A stretch of DNA of 64,000 bases from Fistulifera solaris (GCA_030295235.1 AP026139.1:1-64000), one strand, 5' to 3'. Counted from the stretch's first letter, positions 1 through 30,928 are shown. Notes: generated from the letters alone by a model not told the origin. Made by a program: numbers and translations.

Positions 1-276
1 CTCCTAACCCTAACCCTAACCCTAACCCTCTAACCTCTAACCCTAACCCTAACCCTAACCCTAACCCCAACCCTAACCCTAACCCTAACCCTAACCCTAA
101 CCCTAACCCTAACCCCTAACCCTAACCCTAACCCTAACCCCAACCCTAACCCCTAACCCTAACCCTAACCCTAACCCTAACCCTAACCCTAACCCTAACC
201 CTAACCCTAACCCTAACCCTAGCCCTAGCCCTAACCCTAACCCTAACCCTAACCCTAACCCTAACCCTAACCCTAA
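1..276. repeat. Telomeric repeat array (CCCTAA)n, i.e. TTAGGG on the minus strand
   Basis: About 45 tandem CCCTAA units from the window start, with a few variants (CCTCTAA, CCCCAA, CCCTAG). Orientation fits a left chromosome end. Confidence 0.98.
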
Positions 277-18778: not shown

Positions 18779-21700
18779 CTAGATGCACTCCGAACAACAT
18801 GTCTCTAATTCACAAACCACGGTGCAGTCGACAACTAGAGTGTCTAGCAAAAGTGAAGGATCAGCTGCAACAGCGCATATTTGTTCTGGGACGTTTCCTG
18901 TTAACTGGTTGTTGCCGAGTTGCACTTCTACCAATGTTGATATTTGGCCGAGCTGGGTAGGAATCGGTCCGGTGAGAGCGTTTTCATTAAGCAAAAGACT
19001 CTGGAGTACCGTAAGTTGACCCAGTTCCGCGGGTATTACTCCCGTTAAAGGAGCATTACGTCCCAGGTTCAAGTGCTTCAACTTTGTGAGTGATCCAAAC
19101 TCTAATGGAATAGTTCCAGAAAACAAACAAGCTCGGGCGTTGAACCGCTCTAGATTCGTCAGCAATCCGAGCTCAGGCGGCAGAGGGCCAAATAGCAATG
19201 TTGACTCCAACGCAATGTCTTTAAGGGTAAACATGGTGAAAAGCTCCAATGGAATCGCTCCGCTCAGTGCACTATTTCCAGATAAATGAAGTGTTTCTGA
19301 TTGCAAGAGGGCAAGGGGTGTTAGTCATCGTGTTTGAACAGTTTGTACCCCATGAATGCGCGTCGCAACCTACCTAACGACAAAGCTGTCGCTATTTCCA
19401 CCGGTATTGTTCCACTTATGTTGTTCCGTGACAACCGGAACTCGGTCAGATTGGGCGAAGTTTCCCAGCCAGTGGTCGGAAGGGAACCCGAGAACAGATT
19501 GTCGTCCAAAATTAAGACCTGGATATTTGGTAGACTGAGCAGTTCGGCAGGGAAAGGACCCGTCACACCCGTCCCATTGAGATTGAGCTCTTTCAGCGCT
19601 GTCAAAGAAGTATATTCAGTGCCTAATGTGCTGCCCAGAACGTTCCCCGCTAACGAGAGAATTTCTAGCTCCGTCAAAGCAGCCAGGGTCGGCAGCGGAC
19701 CCACAAGTCCATTCGATTCCAAATAGAGCTCACGCAGCGTCACTATTTCGCCGAGCTCTGCCGGTATCGGGCCGGTGAGAAAGTTGAGATTCAAATTTAA
19801 AACCTCCAATGCCTGTAACTTTGTCAAAACCGCTGACGGCACTGGACCAGTTAATTGGTTCGTATTCAGGTCAAGAACCCTCAATCCTGTAAGCGACCCA
19901 AGACCTTCGGGAAGAGAACCTGAAATCGCATTATCGAATAAGATTAGTTCTTGCAGGTTCGCCATATTCCCCACTTGTTCGGAGAGGGGCCCAAACAACG
20001 AGTTTGATGACAAGTCGAGAACTTCTAGGACACCGTCAGCTGCTCCGTCAAGTACAATCCCTGTGAATGTATTTCGAGCCAATTTCAGAGTTTTCAGCGT
20101 TGAGCTTGACAATAGCTCCGACGGAATTTGACCGAACAACAGATTTTCGCTTAGATCGAGTTCAACCAAGGACGGAATCGAAAAAAGTACAGTCGGTGGG
20201 GAACCTTCAAAGAAATTCAAATATGCACGAACTATCTCGAGACTGCCTAGTCCCCCGATTTCTTCTGGTATCGCAGTGAAACCATTTTCAAAGATATGCA
20301 GTTCCTTCAGACTGGTTAGCAATCCAATCTCGGTTGGAAGCGCTCCAGTAAATACATTACTGGCAAGATTAAGTGTGGCTACGTTAAGAAAACAAAGTGA
20401 GACGTGTTTTGTGCGTATTTAGCTAAAGAGCAAATGAAAGTTTCTTCTTACCCAATGCACCGAGGTTACCGAGACTGGTAGGGAGCTGCTGTGACAGCTC
20501 ATTTCCCTCTACCTCTAAAGTGACTAAATTCGTTAATCTGCCGAGTTCGGAGGGTAGTGTCCCTGTGTGAAAGTTCAAATTCGCCCTGAAGCCGATCAAA
20601 CTAGAAAGCCTGCCGATTTCTGTCGGCAACGTGCCATTGAAAAAGTTATTCGAGTAATCCATTACTTGCAAGAGTGTCAAACTGCTTATGCCAGATGGAA
20701 TCGTCCCGTATAGGTCATTACCGGAAACGTCAAGAATACCTATGTTTTGAAATAAGAAAATCGTGAGATATTTGCACATCAAAAAGTACAAAGACATGAA
20801 CGGACGTGGCCTTTTACACACCTAACGAATTCAGACCACGAATTTCAGAAGGTAGCTCCCCAAAGAGATCGTTTTCACTCAAACTAATTTGTATAACTTT
20901 GCCATCATCGTCACACATCACACCGTACCACGGTGTACATACAGGATCTGGACCGGTCCAACCATCCCGAACACGCCACGAACTCCCATTCGTGGCATAA
21001 AAGAGTGTATTCAAAGCGTAAATCGCTCGGATTTCTTCTTCGTCACCGGGGACGGCCAAGTCGGGAAATGACTCGGTCACTTTTTTATACGCCAGATTCT
21101 GGGCTGTGCCTTCAACATTTATTGATTCGTCATCGGTTAAAGCAAAGGCAAGGAACGCATCGATTGAGTCGAACGCCGGCAGGTGGTTGGCGCACCTATC
21201 AGAGTGCTGGGTGCCGGACTAATTGTAGGTGCAGCTTCAATCAACGTCGAAGGTTGTGTACTTTCCGCAGCTCCAGCCACTGGTGCAGGACTGACTGTAG
21301 GTCCAGTGGCAGCTTGCGTAGCAGGTTGCGAGCTCTCGCCTGTACCAGCGTCCGGAGCGGGGCTCGACGAAGATTCCCCTGTAGCGGGCTGCGAGCTTTC
21401 TCCAGTACCAGCTGCAGGTGCTGGGCTTACAAAAGGCGCGGCGGCAGCTGGCTGGGAGCTTTCTGCAGGACCTGCTGGGCTCTCGGTTGTTCCAAACAAA
21501 ACAGGAGAGCCTGAACCACCCGACCCAACTAGGGAAGGTGCATCAGTTCCCAACGAAGCTGCTGTTGGCAATCCTGTTTGAGAAGATGGCGATGTAGGTG
21601 ATCCCAGAGCGGGTGCGTCAGACCCAGTAGATGGCAATGTCGGCAATACTGTCTGAGAAGCAGGTGTCGGTACTATCGTCAGCGGTGATGAGGGCGTCGG

Positions 21701-22583
21701 AACCAATGTCAACGGGGAAGCTGGTGTCGGTACTATCGTCAGCGGTGATGAGGGCGTCGGAACCAATGTTAACGGGGAAGCTGGTGTCGGCGCGATCGTC
21801 AGCGGTGATGAAGGTGTGGGAACCAATGTCAACGGGGAAGCTGGTGTCGGCACGATCGTCAGCGGTGATGAGGGTGTCGGAACCAATGTTAACGGGGATG
21901 CTGGTGTCGGTTCTATCGTCAGCGGTGATGAGGGTGTCGGAACCAATGTCAACGGGGAAGCTGGTGTCGGTTCTATCGTTAAAGGAGATGAGGGCGTCGG
22001 AACCAATGTCAACGGGGAAGCTGGTGTCGGTACTATCGTCAGCGGTGATGAGGGTGTCGGAACCAGTGTTAACGGGGAAGTAGGTGTTGGTACTATCGTT
22101 AAAGGAGATGATGGTGTCGGCACCAGTGTGAGAGGCGAACCGGGCGTCGGAGCTGGACTTCCCGACGACGACGATGCCGGAGTAGGCTCTCCGGTTTGAG
22201 ACGACGGCAATGAAGGCACTCCTGTTTGAGACGTTGTAGTCGGACTCGCCGTCTGAGAGAGTGTTGTCGGTACATCTGTTTCAATTACTGGTAATGTAGG
22301 AATATCGATAGGTCTATCTCCCGCTGGTGCAGGGGTATCATCCGTCGGCGTTTCTATTGGCGCCGGATTTTCCCCCTGCAGGCGATGGTGCTGGAGAAAT
22401 CGTCGCATCAATATCCGGTGGCGGCTGCCCATGCCGTGCAAATATCAGTTGTTGAGTTTCTTCCACAGATAAGCCGTTAAATAATCTTCTCCATGACTGC
22501 CATGAATTATCGGAAGACGAAAGCAACGCCGCCACAACGAACCCGGAAGCCAGCAAATAGGCTTTCCTTCGTATTTCCCGCAT
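18779..22583 (-). CDS. Extracellular leucine-rich-repeat protein with a Pro/Thr/Ser mucin-like stalk
   Basis: N-terminal hydrophobic segment, then PTPxSPLT repeats, an LRR N-cap (LFYATNGSSW..W..C.PWYGVMC), more than 20 plant-type LRRs (LxxLxLxxNxLxGxIP) and a C-terminal DC..VC...CCSEC. Introns near 20742-20818, 20380-20450 and 19297-19373. Frameshifts near 22442 and 21183. Confidence 0.9.
21650..22150 (-). repeat. Coding minisatellite of 30-bp units with 60-bp higher-order period
   Basis: About 16 units alternating PTPASPLTLV and PTPSSPLTIV; successive 60-nt lines are nearly identical. Confidence 0.95.
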
Positions 22584-24199
22584 CGGTATTGTCGTGTCTT
22601 TGGCTTCCAATGAGCCGATTTTGACAGAAGAAAAGCGCCCGGTCGATTAGCTGTCTAACTGAGATGGCTTTGCCATGGAGGTAACAGCAGATTTGGCTTT
22701 CCGAAGTCGTTTTATCAAAAGACCGATGAAGTCGAAAAATTTGGACCCGAAAATTGTGGCCCGAGGTCACAAAATCGGCCATCGCGGAAAAGGGTCTTCG
22801 AGAAGTCATTTTCAGAGTATACTGTATTGTACAGTCTTATTGATACTCAAACCTATCACTAAATTCCAACGGAAAAGACAACAGACAGCGAGAAGTCCCA
22901 ACGAGGACGGACCGTGACTCCTCTTCAGGACTGCAAACTGCAATTCTGGCATGAGTGCAATACGGAGTATGTTCTCATCCCCAGTCTTCCTTACAATGCG
23001 TTTGTCTGGCTGCTTTGATGAGCTATGGATGATGGATGTCTCTTTATCAGCATAAATACCTCGAACAGCTTCGCAATGCGCGATTCGAATCCTTACAGGG
23101 AAATCTTTGCGGATCATTGTCAGCGTGACTGTAGCGCAAGTGATGGGTCACATAGCCATGACTGGATTCCAGTCACGAGACAAATATGTTTGTTTGTAAG
23201 TCAAGTCTATGCAATTTCCAGTCAGTCCTTCTGAGCATTTTTAACCAAGCTCGAAGGTCGTACTTTACTAAATGTATGTCATGCTGTAATGAATTACCAC
23301 AATGAACTGGTGTATCGTGTATCTATGTACAATAGCGCTCTGCGTACGTGTGTGTATGTGGTTGTGCGCAACGTCAGTCCCAAGTGTCCGGGTTACGGTT
23401 TTGACGTTATCGTTCGTGTTCTTTCGTTGCAGTTGGCTGTTTACCTGGTACCAAGTAATCTTACAGAAAGTCTGTGTAAAATCCAGAAAATCTGAGACGG
23501 TGTGTTTAATCCTTCAGCAATTCTGTGTACGTTCCTAAACTCATGGACAACGCGTGAGCAAAAAGAAATTTTGTGAACGCTCCAGAAATTCTGCTAACGG
23601 CGTCTTTGTACATACAGCATTTCTGTTATATAATCAGAAATGCTGCAGTGTTTTGATCATATTATTGTCAGTGTGTATGTGCATGTCTGTGTGTAACGTT
23701 CGTCCCTGGTGTCTGGGTCACGAATCCGACGTTGTCACACGGGGACCGAGCGCCCCATGCCCTGTGTCCATGTGTGGGGTGTGGGTGTGGGAAGGGCGAG
23801 ATCGAAAAGGCTCTCGAGAGGCTCGCAATCGCAAGGTCTCTAGAGCGAGACGCCGAAGGCGACTAGCGGCTAGTACCGTAATGCATTTTGAAATACAATG
23901 GCGAATCTACATCGAAATTGCCTGTCTATAAGGCGTCCGCCACTGTGTATTATGGAATGAAATGTAGGCGACCTTTTCATCCGACTGGATCCTGGAGGAG
24001 TCACTCACGGTTCTGTCATGTGCCCGGGATGCCGCAATAATACTCCGTACGAGAGAAGCGGATTTTTTATTGCATCGACTTGCATCGCAGATCGCGCAGC
24101 TTGCATCTTTCGCATTCGCTCTTTCTTTCTATTTTAGACAAGCACGACTATTCCTTTTCATCTTTTCTTGGTAACTTCGTTATTCACAAGTTAGACGAA

Positions 24200-27100
24200 A
24201 TGTCAGACATTCAGGAAATAGCATCCTCTAGTAAGATGATTGCGTCGCTTATTACGGAACTCGACAAGCCAAACGGACTATACACGTGGCTGGTGCTTTA
24301 CGGTGAGACGAACTCCTTGACGCGTTATGTTGCGTTATCGAGAACGTTTTGTCAAGAAAAACGTCCTTTACCCAACTTAATGCCAAGTGTATTAGAGAAA
24401 TTGGTCACTACGCAAGAAAATTTAACCTCATTATTTGATTTATGGTGTTGTTTCTGGAATACCTACGAACGGATTCAAGATAATGAGCTGTGGTTGAATT
24501 CTGTCGAACGCCACCCATCGCTTATTCAATTTAATAACTCCATGCGACCTGGTTTGAGGTTTACTAGTGTTGCTTGGAAGATTGCCATCAAGATCCGTAG
24601 CAAACATCCGACACTGGATCCCTGGCTGTTGAGTTTGGCGGCGTTTTCGTTGATTTTGAGAGCCATGAAGAGTCATTCTGCGAGCTATGAACAGTGGAAT
24701 CGACTCTGCGATACACACTTTGAAAATTCTGTTGATGATTATCTAGTGGAGAAATTGTATGGAAGCAATTGTCGATGCTGGCAGGCTCCTCTCGATCCTC
24801 CGCAGGAATTCACCCCGGAAAGAATTACATCTTTCGTGGCAAAATTCATTGTAACACATATTTTTGCAGCAAAAGGAAGCCATGATAAAGGTGAGCCGTC
24901 TCTCGCCCACAATATCACCCAGTGGCTTGACAAGTATGAGAACAACACGGAGAACCTGAATCCCATGATACTCATGTCGGAATACATTAAATTTTTGAAA
25001 ACTCGCAAAGGTCTGAATCCTTTCGTCTTTCTTGCGAAACCCTCTGACGATCTTGTTCAAGAAACAACAACTGATTTTGTTGCAAGTGCGTCTCAAGAGC
25101 CTCCGAAAGAAATGCGGGCATCACAAGGAACCGATGTCAGAGATGGTTCGAAGGAAATAAATACGTCTACTTCGCCGCAACCGCGCGACGAGGAAGGTTG
25201 GGACAAGGACGCCAATGGCATTGCGTCAGATAAAGATTCCGTTGATGATGCTTTTATACAACACGAGAATGATGACGCGGATGAAGTGTCGACGACCTCA
25301 AAGCCCACACCGCAGAACGATGATCAAGTAGAAGGAGCTAGTCGACTGATAGCGATGTTAATCACCGAAGTCGACAAACCGAACGGCTTGTACACGTGGC
25401 TATTGCAGTTCGGCGAACAGTACAGTTTGACAGATTTTGTTGCGTTGTCTACTACATTTTGTAAAGAAAAGAGTCCTTTACAAGATAGCACACCAGTGCT
25501 GTTGAAATCGCTAGTCGAAACTCAGAAAAACCTCGATTCCCTGCATCATTTGTGGTGCTGTTTTTGGAACACTTGCTATCGAATCCAAGATGATCCCTTG
25601 TGGAATGAAGCCGTTGAGTCTCACCCAATGTTAACATACCTCGAAAAGACGTCATCGGCCGGGATGATGTTTGTAACAGTTGCTTGGAAGATTGCAGCTA
25701 AACTACGGCAGAAGGACTCGACTCTGGATCCTTGGATTTTGAGTTTGGCAGCAATTTCCCTCCTTCTAAAAGCGATGAACAGTCATCCCCTAAACTATCA
25801 AAAATGGGTAGAATTTTGCTCGGCGCGGTTTGGTGAGTCATATGATGCATATTTACTTGGCAAACTCTATCAAAGCGATAATCGTTGTCGGGAGTATCCT
25901 CTCGATCCTCCGTCCGGTTTTGCACCGGACCTCGTCTCGTCCCTGGTGAAGACCGTTATCACAACCCAAATTTACAACGATCATACGTCGGTAAGGCCAC
26001 TCGCGGAAACGATTAGGGAATGGCTTGAACATCGTGAGAACAGATGGGAAAATCTCGATCCCACCACATTGATGACTGAATACGTGAAGTTCATCAGGAA
26101 TGGTAAAGGACTCAACCCATTTGTCTTTCTTGCAAAATCTTCGGACATTTTTTTGTCGCAAAGACGAAAGTCTGGTCGTCAATTACTTCTCCCCGTAGCG
26201 CGAACAGGTCTAGAAGCATCAATTCTTAAAGAACATCAAACCGAACGTCGAGGAACGAATGCGTCACCTACTCGAAAGGAACCGGAAACTTCTGATGAGG
26301 CTACGACTAATGACGTTGCCCTCAATCACGAAGCTGATGATGACGTTTCTGTGCAGCAAAACGACGAAAATGAGAACACAAATGGTAGTATCGGCAAACA
26401 TCCCGCAAGTGACGCCGAAGACGAAGCTAATGAAGTAAAGAAGCGAAAGTTAAATCTAAATGCTTCGCGAAGTCAACGCTTAGCCACCGCAATGGCGCTG
26501 GTGGTAAAAGAACTCTCCAAAATGAATCAGGGTTTGCCAGACTCGGCCGCCCAGACCTACGTCTTGTCCGATTCCATGGAATTGAACGAATGGACTGTGT
26601 CTTTGCTGATTGTGGACCATGTTGCGCCGAGTAGCAGATTAGTTCGTTACTTGGACGAAGCGTCGCCAAGACAATGGACCAAAGAATTGATTCCAATACT
26701 CAATCGTGCGTTGCTGCGATTTTCACAGGAGAATTTGGTAGAAAAGGCCACTCGAACGGCACCTGTATCTGTATCAAAATCGGATGGAGTGGTGCAGATT
26801 CATGGAAGTGTTACAGACGATAAGATCATGAGCAAAGCTGTGATACTGCTCTATTATCACGCACTTGAAGCCATTTTGACATCGGAATCGGAACGACTGA
26901 AAGTAACATCACATCCACAAATTGTGATGTACTCTGTCTTTCACAAGGCTCTGTTGGCATGCTGTATGTGGTGTGTGACGAAAGCTATCGGTGCTACACA
27001 AAAACTGCGATCTTCCCCTTGTCTACAAGCATTGTCGATACAATCGACACTGCGAGTCTGTGACAGCAATCCCTACGACTTTCTCAAGGTTTCTGAATCC

Positions 27101-27921
27101 TTTTTGCGCGTACTATGCCTTGGAACTTCGAATCTCAAATTGGGATCACCGTTACCACAGAAATTGCCGCGTCTGTTGCACCGCGATCTCCAATCGATGG
27201 AAGTGACCATTCTGGATTCGTTGCTGTGGTCGACCTCCATCCTGAATGGCACGGCCGGTTCTTTGCCTGAGCAAATCGAAGATTTTATGGGCAAGTCGAA
27301 TGAGAATGTCACCCTCTGGCCTCCGGAGATACTAGCACCGACCTTGCGAGAGGAAGCATCCGAGTCTGGCAAGAATCTCACTTATCCTACACCCGATCAC
27401 GAGGATTTTGCCGAATACAGATGTGTGAATTTTTGATTAGATCCGTGGTAAAACTGTCCTTTTCTCGTTTTGAAGACATCTGCGGTTTGCTGAAAGTTCC
27501 CGTACAGTATCCTTTGGTGACACATGCTTGGGTGGCTTTCCGTCACTTGCTGCGACATCATGTAGAAATGCTGTTTGATCGACATGTGGATCAATGGATT
27601 TTATGTTGTCTTTACGGCGTGGCCAAGGTTTTGTCATTTCCGCTGACCTTTGCGGAAATCATTGAAGCTTACATCAAGTCGCGTGGTCCGGTAGTGGGAG
27701 ATGTGACTTGCCAACACATCTTGCGATATATTCGTATGGATAATACCAGTCACGATTTAACGACAGGTGATGTAATTGCGCTCTACAACCATGTTTGGGT
27801 CCCTAATATGAAAACATACTTGATGGAGAGTGCATCTCTCCGAGAGAGTGCCAAGAAAGTGCAAGAGTTGCTTCGTGGGAAAGAAGCCGCGACACCGGAT
27901 GAACCCATAAATGAGCAATAA
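24200..27921 (+). CDS. Retinoblastoma-related pocket protein with a tandemly duplicated N-terminal domain
   Basis: RB_A: LYYHALEAILTSESERL, FHKALLACC, PYDFLKVSESFLR, ILDSLLW. RB_B: LFDRHVDQWILCCLYGVAKV, FAEIIEAY, DVIALYNHVWVP. Frameshift at the T-run near 27432. Confidence 0.88.
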
Positions 27922-28410
27922 GAACGAAAGTAAATAGTTAATCACCTTACAATGAATACACCTTGTTAAGATTTTGGATTAAATATGGTTAGCGGTCGCG
28001 CCAGACCTTCGCAGAGTGTCTCTCTAGAAGAGAAAACGAACGCAGTGGCCAACTTACGGGACTGAAATAAGATGAGTCGGGTGACGTAGGAACCTACAAC
28101 CTACACTTGTCAAGACAATACAGCAGCCAAGAAAAAAAGGAGGCGAGGAAAACGACTCCTATTTGTCAGAAAATAGAGACGGAAGAGCAAGATTCATCCT
28201 ATCATCTTTAATTGCGACGTACAATAATTATGAATCATCGAGTTGTCTGAATCGAACATTCATCCTTTGTTATCAATCATTCCGGCGTGAGGCGGTTTTC
28301 TTTTGCATGAACTAGAATTAATTTCAGTGCAAACGTAGCTCGCTACTCGACAAACACACATCCTAATTCTATTGCACCTTTCGTCCATTTCGCGAGTGAG
28401 ACAGAACGAA

Positions 28411-30928
28411 ATGAGTAGCCGTGACGAACCTTTACATAGTGCGGGTCACGTACATGCTCCTCTACACAATTCTGACGACAGTGTCGGAAGTTATCCAGTC
28501 GACACGGAAATGAATATTGATGATTTGCTGAGTTTAGGATCCTCATCTTTCGATATGCGATTAACTAATCCGGTACAAATGGAGTTACAAGAGAATGCGC
28601 GGTTACCGACCTTTTACGGAACGGTCGATCGTTCCGGTAGTAGTTCGATTGGTATCTCGCGACGCGTCCCCGAAGCAGCTTTGCACAGTCCGACACGGCT
28701 TCAGCAGCAACAACGACAACACAGTGATAGTACTGACGATCCGGCTATTAATTGGGGTGAATTATTTTTGAATGATCGACATCGTGTCAGCTATCACGGG
28801 AATTACAAAGAAGCGGGTGTTTTGAAGGATAATGTGGATACGTTTCCGATGATCGTACCCACCGAAGTTGAAAGAACGGCGGCTCTGTCCGAAACAATTG
28901 ACATCAATCAAAACACTTACAACGACCCGAATGACCTTATCATTGAAGTGGAACCGACGCCCTTGTCGGAGATTAAACGCCGTGCCGAAGAGCGCCATCA
29001 TCGAGAACAAAAGCACAATGTTGGGGTAAATGAGGGACCGCGACATCATCCTTTCAGTCGGAGTACTCCTCTGCTGGCCTACGATCAGCACCACGGCAAC
29101 AGCGATGCGGTCAGTATGGCACACGCTATTGCTACTGCAGCGGCTTTGGCGTCTACAACGATGCAGCACAGGCCGTCAACAAGTACAGGCATGTCCAAAT
29201 TACCTCCGGCGACTGCCGGTGTTTTAAAAGATATTTCTACCAAGAAAAAGAAACACGGCTTCGGTCCTAATCATATTGTGCCATCGGTTCCTGAAACCGA
29301 TACACGTCGTATGTCGCGGAAGCGCCCGCCTCCCGTCGTTACGACCAATACGAATACTGGTAAAAGCCATAATGCATTTGTTCCCATGGCACCGCCGTTT
29401 GCTTCTGTGGTGACTACAAATCATCACAATTCCGCAAATTATCATATAGGAGGCTCCGAAATGAATGACGCGGATCGAGGATCTCCGACGAATCCAGGCG
29501 ATGCCTACGAGAGGAAAAAAGCAACGAGCGAAGGATGCTCGTGTCAAGTTAAATGAATCAATCGATCGAATGCACATTTCGATACGCCTGGCGTTGACGC
29601 AGTCGCAGCAAAGACTGAAGCAAACACACGAGAGTGACATGTTAACAACGGCACAAAAGGAAAAGATCGGTCCTTTAATGCAGCAAACAATACGCATCGC
29701 AGAGACGGCGAAAAAGTGGGATCGGCCTAGCTTTGTGGGTTCCGCGGCTGATTTAATTCAAATATTAAATGCGCAATGTGAAGCGTTGATGGTCTTGGCA
29801 ATGAAGTCATCTAATCATGAAAGTGAGAATTCAGCGAACTGGAATTCGAATGCAATGAATGCTATTCCAGCTTCGTCAGCCATCTCTCCTTCCAATAATG
29901 GACAGCACAAACGTCTCATCATAGACGAAGCGGGTCCTTTGAACAACAGTGTTGGAGATGTTGGCGCGATTAATATCAATAGCAATAGCAATTTCAAACG
30001 TGTGCGAACTACTCCAATGACCGAGCCTCAAACAATCTTGGATGTTAAAGATGATGGAAGCTGGATTTCAAACGGTCGGATATTGCATTGTATCGCATCT
30101 TTCTTGGATCCTTCTTCACTGTATTGCTGTCACTTCCGCATTTGCAAAGCTTGGATGACTTTGGGAATTTTTAATTCGGATGCTACATGGGAAAGGCTGG
30201 TGTTGCAACGCTTTGGCTACTATTGTGTGCGACAATGGCGTGACAAACTTCAACTGGACGATACATCCGACTATCCTTCATATGCCACTTTGTACAAACG
30301 TATGGACATGGCCAATGCAATGCCCCATATTGCGTCAGTTCATCAAAATGAAGGATGGTTTTTATTGGGCGAAACTCGTTTGCCCGGATCGATTAGTGCG
30401 TGGGTGTATTTAATCGAGCGCAGCAATGGTGAAACGTTACGGAGCGTTCATCACGCCTTGACAAACAAATTTCGAAGTCTACCCATCGTAGAATTACGGA
30501 CTGTGTTACAGAGCACTGGTGGCAAAGAAATCGTTTGGAAGCTGGATCAAATTCAAAGTGTCGATACATCTACGCGACGTCGCGCAGAAGAAATGAAAGA
30601 GTTGCAGGGTGACGATGGTCGATTTGCCAAGCGCGTGTTCCGTCTGGAGGATGGGGCACTCTTTCCCATATCTACCGATACCAATGGTTCCCTTCGCTTG
30701 AATTTGTTCGAAACCGTGATCGTGGTGTCGTACATCCATGCCACGCATTGCAACACAATCTCTAAATTTGTGCAAAAAAGCAACTTTACTCGATGGCTAG
30801 TGCAAGTTAACGGAACGACGGTGCCTTTGGTGATTCCCCTTTCCCAGGGATGCGTTAAGTTTGCAGCACTAGCAGAATTTGTATCGTTTGTCAATAGTAT
30901 GCTTGCACGTAGAACCATTTCTTCATAA
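28411..30928 (+). CDS. bHLH-like transcription factor fused to an F-box-like domain
   Basis: ERKKQRAKDARVKLNESIDRM...KWDRPSFVGSAADLIQIL (bHLH-like) and ILHCIASFLDPSSL..RICKAW...SDATWERL (F-box-like). Frameshift at the A-run 29515-29520. Confidence 0.7.

Follow-up and report, generated by a model that had tools for sequence, protein, structure and literature searches.

An old tandem duplication of the N-terminal domain in a retinoblastoma-family protein of the diatom Fistulifera solaris

We examined a retinoblastoma (Rb) gene on the plus strand of a 64,000-nucleotide (nt) stretch of the genome of Fistulifera solaris (GCA_030295235.1 AP026139.1:1-64000; this whole stretch is referred to as the window, and positions are counted from its first letter), and we found that the region ahead of its pocket contains two diverged copies of one domain, each followed by an acidic linker. 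In the reading that we favor, with a probability of about 0.6, a segment of approximately 370 codons underwent an in-frame tandem duplication within the Fistulifera lineage, the repeated domain is most likely the diatom counterpart of the Rb N-terminal domain (RbN), and the protein would act through its pocket and through phosphorylation switches in its linkers. The Rb annotation of this gene was already known, and the doubled N-terminal module is the new part. The N-domain is the least understood part of Rb and, to our knowledge, Rb proteins across eukaryotes have been described with a single N-domain before the pocket; our search of one literature collection yielded nothing on a duplicated Rb N-domain or on the F. 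solaris Rb protein. The analysis confirmed the variant as real and lineage-specific, the regulator itself being a known one.

Two copies of an N-terminal domain in one reading frame

The initial annotation, made from the sequence, had described two alignable copies of an N-terminal domain within one open frame, and the open reading frame (ORF) and BLASTP comparisons bore out the doubling together with its position and motifs. When residues (aa) 1-287 were compared by BLASTP with the translation of positions 25250-26200, the copies shared 148 of 278 residues (53%; expect value (E) 8e-100), which pairs nt 24215-25048 with nt 25325-26146. Copy 1 accordingly covers aa 6-283 (24215..25048) and copy 2 covers aa 376-649 (25325..26146, as also placed by tblastn). 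A tblastn search of the window found exactly these two copies.

To place the gene among deposited proteins, aa 1-650 were used in a word-indexed search in which 7999 candidates were scored, and three proteins were returned at E ≤ 0.001. These are P0002, a 1240-aa "retinoblastoma-associated protein [Fistulifera solaris]" that is 100% identical to the window over aa 1-650; P0003, a second F. solaris protein of 1229 aa; and P0004, a Fistulifera-type protein of 1234 aa from JGI. The latter two are each 80% identical to the window over the same residues.

The repeat had been described as about 270 aa long and joined by an acidic linker; the repeat itself stood, and its unit proved to be larger. In a windowed self-BLAST, aa 201-379 of P0002 aligned with aa 571-743 (E 3.6e-22), and in P0004 the linkers aligned on their own (307-376 with 670-742, E 7e-6). 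Because the self-repeat extends past the helical domain into the linker, the duplicated unit is approximately 370 aa (aa ~6-375 and ~376-743) and comprises the domain plus its acidic linker. Linker 1 (25049..25324) is acidic and rich in serine and threonine by composition, with 24 D+E against 8 K+R in the region aa 288-380, and it carries a serine-proline site at S325 (nt 25172-25174). The part of linker 2 that is homologous to linker 1 (26147..26428) has a serine-proline site at S689 (nt 26264-26266). Between linker 2 and the pocket lies an unduplicated segment of about 45 residues (26429..26569) containing KKRK at aa 747-750 and a helix that is conserved in other diatom Rb proteins, as judged from the consensus of alignments A1 and A4.

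The pocket and the gene model

Stop-to-stop reading of positions 22000-30000 gave an open frame at 24041-27436 on the plus strand, with an ATG at 24200, followed by a second frame of 205 codons, offset by one base, at 27304-27921. The assignment to the Rb pocket-protein family was supported by Pfam, which placed RB_A (PF01858) at aa 791-1012 (26570..27235; E 6.6e-19, 69 bits with a cut-off of 25) and RB_B (PF01857) at 27427..27813 (E 1.2e-24, 87.3 bits with a cut-off of 26.9). RB_B lies in the second frame, and is in frame with RB_A only once a missing T is restored. The window has a run of five T at 27430..27434, which leads to an apparent frameshift and a stop at 27434-27436, just upstream of RB_B; uninterrupted reading requires six. 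P0002, P0003 and P0004 all continue without interruption through ..AEYRCVNFLIRSVV.. at this run (..CVNFLIRS.. in P0002).

We also compared the window with contigs from four sequencing runs (X1-X4) of one study over 24000-28100; the kind of run could only be guessed, and the contigs say nothing firm about expression or transcript ends. The X1 contig has an additional T behind 27429, at a depth of 21/21, although X1 is possibly the source sample of the window assembly and would then be independent of the assembly only, not of the organism. Because the three proteins read through this point and the X1 contig has the extra T, the gene is most likely a single exon of 1240 codons (24200..27921) for which the window is one base short, and the missing T is probably a homopolymer error of the assembly. 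The frame could also be restored by a 113-nt GT..AG intron (27308-27420), a model that we dropped on the same two grounds. Contigs lying on linker 1 reach copy 2 in three of the runs (X3, 25132-25359; X4, 25141-25348; X1, 24947-25348).

In runs X2-X4 there is a second set of contigs, approximately 90% identical to the window (20-45 differing letters per contig), at 26519-26997 and 27735-27956 in the pocket region. This set is consistent with a homeolog of the gene, F. solaris being presumably allodiploid. The E2F-type motif TTTSSCGC occurs 5 times in the window, with 10.9 expected, and is absent from the 1.6 kb upstream of the ATG.

The residues of the LxCxE cleft are retained, as had been suggested: in the alignment with human Rb chains (E 1.3e-13), clYGvaKv falls on smYGicKv and alYNhvw on vfYNsvf, so that YG..K and YN of RB_B align with the human B box, at residues that we take to be Y709, K713, Y756 and N757. 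Equally, there is almost no C-terminal tail. The roughly 35 aa that follow RB_B before the stop (27814..27921) match no Pfam family at E up to 1, and no Rb C-terminal domain was found there. The spacer between the A and B boxes had been called short, which did not hold, as it measures approximately 63 aa by the Pfam limits and is not notably shorter than that of human Rb. As a member of this family, the protein would be expected to bind and repress E2F/DP and to have a role in cell-cycle control.

Age of the duplication and selection on the copies

In a codon alignment the two copies agree at 593 of 1056 bases (56%). The proportion of differing synonymous sites (pS) between them is 0.74, which is saturated; for nonsynonymous sites the proportion (pN) is 0.31 across the domain, as against 0.51 across the linker. 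Because synonymous sites are saturated, the duplication is old; and because a tree of the six copies separates the copy-1 group from the copy-2 group with a branch support of 1.0, it preceded the divergence of the three Fistulifera-type genes. Identity among P0002, P0003 and P0004 is 84-87% in copy 1, 78-85% in copy 2, 62-76% in the linkers (62-69% in linker 1), 97-98% in RB_A, and 92-93% in RB_B plus the tail. Both copies are under purifying selection, and therefore both are probably functional. The frame is open across the linkers in all three proteins, and the indels there are in frame, including one of 6 codons in P0004. That such fast-evolving linkers keep their frame argues that copies and linkers would be made as one polypeptide.

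Distribution among diatom Rb proteins

To ask how widespread this architecture is, we took the proteins from two pocket-region searches (31 and 41 proteins, 47 distinct), in which RB_B is present in all and RB_A in 46. Besides the two F. solaris proteins, the named members are from Mayamaea pseudoterrestris (P0017), Nitzschia inconspicua (P0025) and Entomoneis paludosa (P0037), and 41 further proteins are likewise not of Fistulifera type. Windowed self-BLAST at E ≤ 1e-3 detected a long internal repeat in 3 of the 47, all of Fistulifera type, and no internal repeat in 43. The remaining protein, P0032, a distant diatom-type Rb, has a 28-aa repeat of 68% identity just before its pocket (aa 671-698 and 723-750) that has no connection with the Fistulifera duplication.

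When the 47 pockets were placed in a quick maximum-likelihood tree, the Fistulifera trio was united with 100% support on a long stem of 0.69. The trio falls inside a nine-row clade, again with 100% support, together with P0005-7, P0011, P0013 and P0016, each of which has a single N-region. When copy 2 was scanned with HMMER against 1,835,955,588 representative sequences, the one match at E ≤ 0.001 was P0004, in two stretches. The view that the doubling is not standard in diatom Rb thus stood up, the six nearest relatives being without it, and among database proteins only those of the Fistulifera lineage have the doubled domain.

The N-regions of the other proteins (P0005-P0048, 280-990 aa) are themselves very fast-evolving, have many low-complexity inserts, and are not seen by the Pfam RbN model. 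They do share the ordered motifs DF..W, AWKL.C, L.S.AA.AL and P..KR.R, which could seed a dedicated diatom RbN profile.

Relationship of the repeated domain to other N-regions and to RbN

The copies were compared with the N-regions of other diatoms in several alignments. Alignment A1 holds both window copies together with P0003-P0025, P0027, P0028 and P0030-32; left out were P0002, which is the protein of the window itself, and, for their short N-termini, P0026 and P0029. A MAFFT alignment (A2) was set aside, since it spread the short copies across pocket columns. In A3, copy 1 was aligned to copy 2, and the anchoring row keeps the other diatoms in register. In both A1 and A3 the other diatoms have the blocks L..L...F.DFW.VW, AWK..C, L...AA..LL and D.T.LM.YY...G..P in the same order as the corresponding Fistulifera motifs LWCCFWNT, VAWKIA, LSLAA.SL and LM.EY.KF...KGLNPFVFL. 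A hidden Markov model (HMM) of 27 other N-termini matched both copies in the three proteins at HMM positions 154-240, with domain E of 2e-6 to 0.08 in a three-sequence database, and hhalign of the six copies against the alignment of those 27 N-termini gave E 1.9e-4 and a probability of 47%. An HMM of the six copies found nothing below E 0.3 among the other 44 Rb-like proteins. Taken as a whole, this sequence evidence for a relationship between the copies and the N-regions of other diatoms is weak but consistent.

Structure prediction was confined to copy 2, for which two AlphaFold2 models were made, model 1 from A1 (predicted local distance difference test score, pLDDT, 69.8; predicted template modelling score, pTM, 0.46) and model 2 from A3 (pLDDT 65.2, pTM 0.64). 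The models are all-helical, with 14-16 helices. We compared them by VIA-align with 48,161 representative chains; by the tool's own warning, chance alone can produce Z values below 8, or, with helical proteins, below approximately 13. For model 1 the top row was TFIIB (3h4c; Z 8.0, 93 residues aligned), and cyclin B1 (Z 7.2, 99), a Brf1-type protein (Z 7.0, 107), cyclin A (Z 6.8, 101) and the Rb B box (Z 5.9, 110) were also listed, the cyclin-fold rows covering model residues ~76-206. The human RbN chain 2qdj_A aligned with this model over 157 residues at Z 5.1 (root-mean-square deviation (rmsd) 4.8; model 25-280 on chain 94-352). For model 2 the chain ranked first of the 48,161 was 4elj_A, aligned through its RbN part (chain 136-345; Z 6.5, 160 residues, rmsd 5.2). 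The chain 2qdj_A aligned over 182 residues (Z 5.8, rmsd 5.9; model 12-259 on chain 69-341), and the remaining list was mostly TFIIB, Brf1, cyclins and Rb boxes. A comparison with the ESM Atlas gave no lead, bacterial clusters scoring best at 0.88. From these models, a cyclin-type fold is likely in copy 2 residues ~65-260. The copy is plausibly equivalent to RbN, given that RbN chains aligned over the most residues and headed one of the two lists and that the domain sits where RbN would be expected; we regard this comparison of predicted structures as suggestive and not decisive.

Proposed architecture and alternative explanations

In our reading, an all-helical domain of approximately 275 aa, with a disordered, acidic, serine- and threonine-rich linker, was duplicated in tandem and in frame, which gives the order N1-linker-N2-linker-RB_A-spacer-RB_B. 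The repeated domain would most likely be a fast-evolving diatom counterpart of RbN, a cyclin-fold module of which the Rb proteins of other diatoms have one. The pocket, its LxCxE cleft intact, would work as in other Rb proteins, and repression of E2F would be expected of a member of this family. If human Rb is a guide, the N-modules may serve as docking or regulatory modules, and S325 and S689 in the linkers are candidate switches that depend on cyclin-dependent kinase (CDK). Each unit would then be an N-module with its own linker switch, and the duplication would have added a second such module.

The human protein provides the background for this analogy. According to PMC3597711, human RB-N consists of twin cyclin folds, which are related to the pocket, and the domains are proposed to be rearranged into an inactive form when T356/T373, in the linker between N-domain and pocket, are phosphorylated. 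PMC2082274 gives 16 serine- or threonine-proline (S/T-P) sites in human Rb, in three areas. Our protein has 11, of which S325 in linker 1 and S822 at the start of RB_A are present in all three proteins; no S/T-P site in the C-terminal tail is common to the three. In diatoms, Rb and E2F/DP have been reported from Phaeodactylum, as unpublished data only (PMC2872877).

A number of observations weigh against this proposal. No Pfam family was found for either copy, or elsewhere in the first 650 aa, at E ≤ 1, and the Pfam RbN model DUF3452 (PF11934) matched 0 of the 30 sequences of A1 at the same threshold. Copy 2 had no significant match among PDB sequences by phmmer (best E 0.39), and an A1 profile run against the PDB recovered pocket chains only and no RbN-only chain. 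In the comparison with other diatoms, a shuffle control with 3000 decoys placed 5 of the 6 copies in the top 16 of 3006, but at only 3.5-8.5 bits, and the sixth copy, with 0.0 bits for its best stretch, fell outside the top 25; hhalign of the copies against the six nearest relatives was collinear over 221 columns, at E 0.023 and a probability of 2%. The structural models are only moderately confident, being poor over the first 60 residues and in the first lobe, neither matches the PDB at E ≤ 0.001 in Foldseek, and the VIA-align Z values of 5-8 are within the range that helical proteins reach by chance. Moreover, the serine-proline at S689 (SPTR in the window protein) is present in only two of the three proteins, the window as assembled is frameshifted before RB_B, and no RNA-recorded run covering the stretch was listed, so that a single transcript is presumed. 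That the repeat is the Rb N-domain, toward which the initial annotation had pointed, is suggested by the position of the repeat upstream of the pocket and by weak fold matches (Z 5.1-6.5), and not by sequence (DUF3452 0/30, no RbN chain).

These observations bear most directly on an explanation that we hold to be unlikely though well worth considering, in which what is repeated would be a helical module peculiar to the lineage or to diatoms and not homologous to RbN, so that an Rb pocket has been fused to two copies of a module with an unrelated partner-binding role. The lack of any sequence link to RbN in Pfam and the PDB, the Foldseek result for both models, the low VIA-align Z values (only 5-8), and the fact that phmmer detected no relative of the domain outside Fistulifera all suit such a module. 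It sits less well with the position of the domain, directly upstream of the pocket as RbN is, with the preponderance of cyclin-fold proteins in the top VIA-align rows (human RbN giving the longest alignments, 157-182, and coming first for model 2), and with motifs that follow the same order as in the single N-region of the Rb proteins of other diatoms. Alternatively, the RbN-type modules may do more than we propose: N1 and N2 could be separate CDK-gated docking switches, or could pair like the A and B boxes, in a three-module Rb whose release of E2F integrates two inputs. We treat this idea as speculative. A complex prediction for copy 2 (aa 376-660) with the pocket (aa 780-1215) gave no verdict, with a score of 0.00, in a run that did not use the alignment.

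The other explanations concern the gene and not the domain. It is improbable, in our estimation, that the locus makes two products, for instance a protein with N1 alone and, from an internal promoter or start, a conventional Rb with N2 and the pocket, so that no protein has both copies. Such a start could use an in-frame methionine that the window protein has in linker 1 (..KEMRAS..), and no RNA-recorded run was found to support a single transcript, but the methionine is missing from the other two proteins, the three diverged genes have no stop between the copies and only in-frame linker indels, and the contigs of the four runs showed no joints over 24000-28100. Still less credible is a pseudogene allele truncated ahead of RB_B: the run of five T and its stop at 27434-27436 would fit, against which stand the extra T in the X1 contig (21/21), the uninterrupted reading in P0002 (100% identical over aa 1-650) and the two other proteins, and an intact downstream RB_B that is 92-93% conserved. 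An assembly artefact, finally, is effectively refuted and has nothing in its favor, as the copies are only 56% identical in nucleotides, the same architecture is found in three diverged proteins, and Tandem Repeats Finder reported no long DNA repeat here.

Neighboring features

Upstream, an ORF at 21137-22444 on the minus strand encodes a product rich in proline, threonine and serine. It contains a tandem array at 21657-22129, with a 60-nt unit present 7.9 times at 90% match and a peptide repeat that is SPLTLVPTPSSPLTIVPTPA-like. No Pfam family was found for this ORF, and its product is possibly mucin-like and either secreted or part of the cell wall. Downstream of the Rb gene, two long open frames at 28339-29556 and 29465-30928 on the plus strand overlap in different frames, and neither matches Pfam; both may belong to a single gene, interrupted by an intron or by another homopolymer error.

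Significance and comparison with known systems

The interest of this gene lies in a natural Rb with two diverged N-modules, long kept under selection, in a diatom that is transformable, oil-producing and industrially studied, and it offers a simple genetic handle on N-module function. Were the three-module idea true, nature would have provided in this protein a way to test the contribution of RbN to the regulation of Rb. Standard domain libraries miss the fast-evolving N-regions of diatom Rb proteins, which bears on the annotation of algal cell-cycle genes. As the duplication is found in one lineage only, we see it as a curiosity with experimental potential and not as a general principle.

Compared with other diatom Rb proteins, the pocket of the window protein is 30-56% identical (28 non-Fistulifera proteins), the N-region motifs DF..W, AWK and AA..LL occur in the same order, and none of the N-regions matches Pfam RbN. 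The difference is that the other 44 proteins have single N-regions, which are less than approximately 20% identical to the Fistulifera copies. Among cyclin-box proteins (TFIIB, Brf1 and cyclins), the predicted structure of copy 2 superposes on single cyclin folds over residues ~65-260 at Z 5-8, yet sequence similarity is absent, and the domain stands here in an Rb protein, where the others are cyclins or general transcription factors.

With human Rb (RB1; 2QDJ, 4ELJ) the likeness extends to RB_A and RB_B with the LxCxE-cleft motifs, and to a helical module at the N-terminal side of the pocket, behind which comes a disordered linker with S/T-P sites; in the models, one Fistulifera copy has a weak and merely suggestive similarity to the RbN fold. 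The Fistulifera copies differ in having no sequence similarity to RbN, and the tail of about 35 aa contrasts with the C-terminal domain of the human protein, as do the 11 S/T-P sites with the 16 given for human Rb in PMC2082274. Above all, where human Rb has one N-module, the Fistulifera protein has two.

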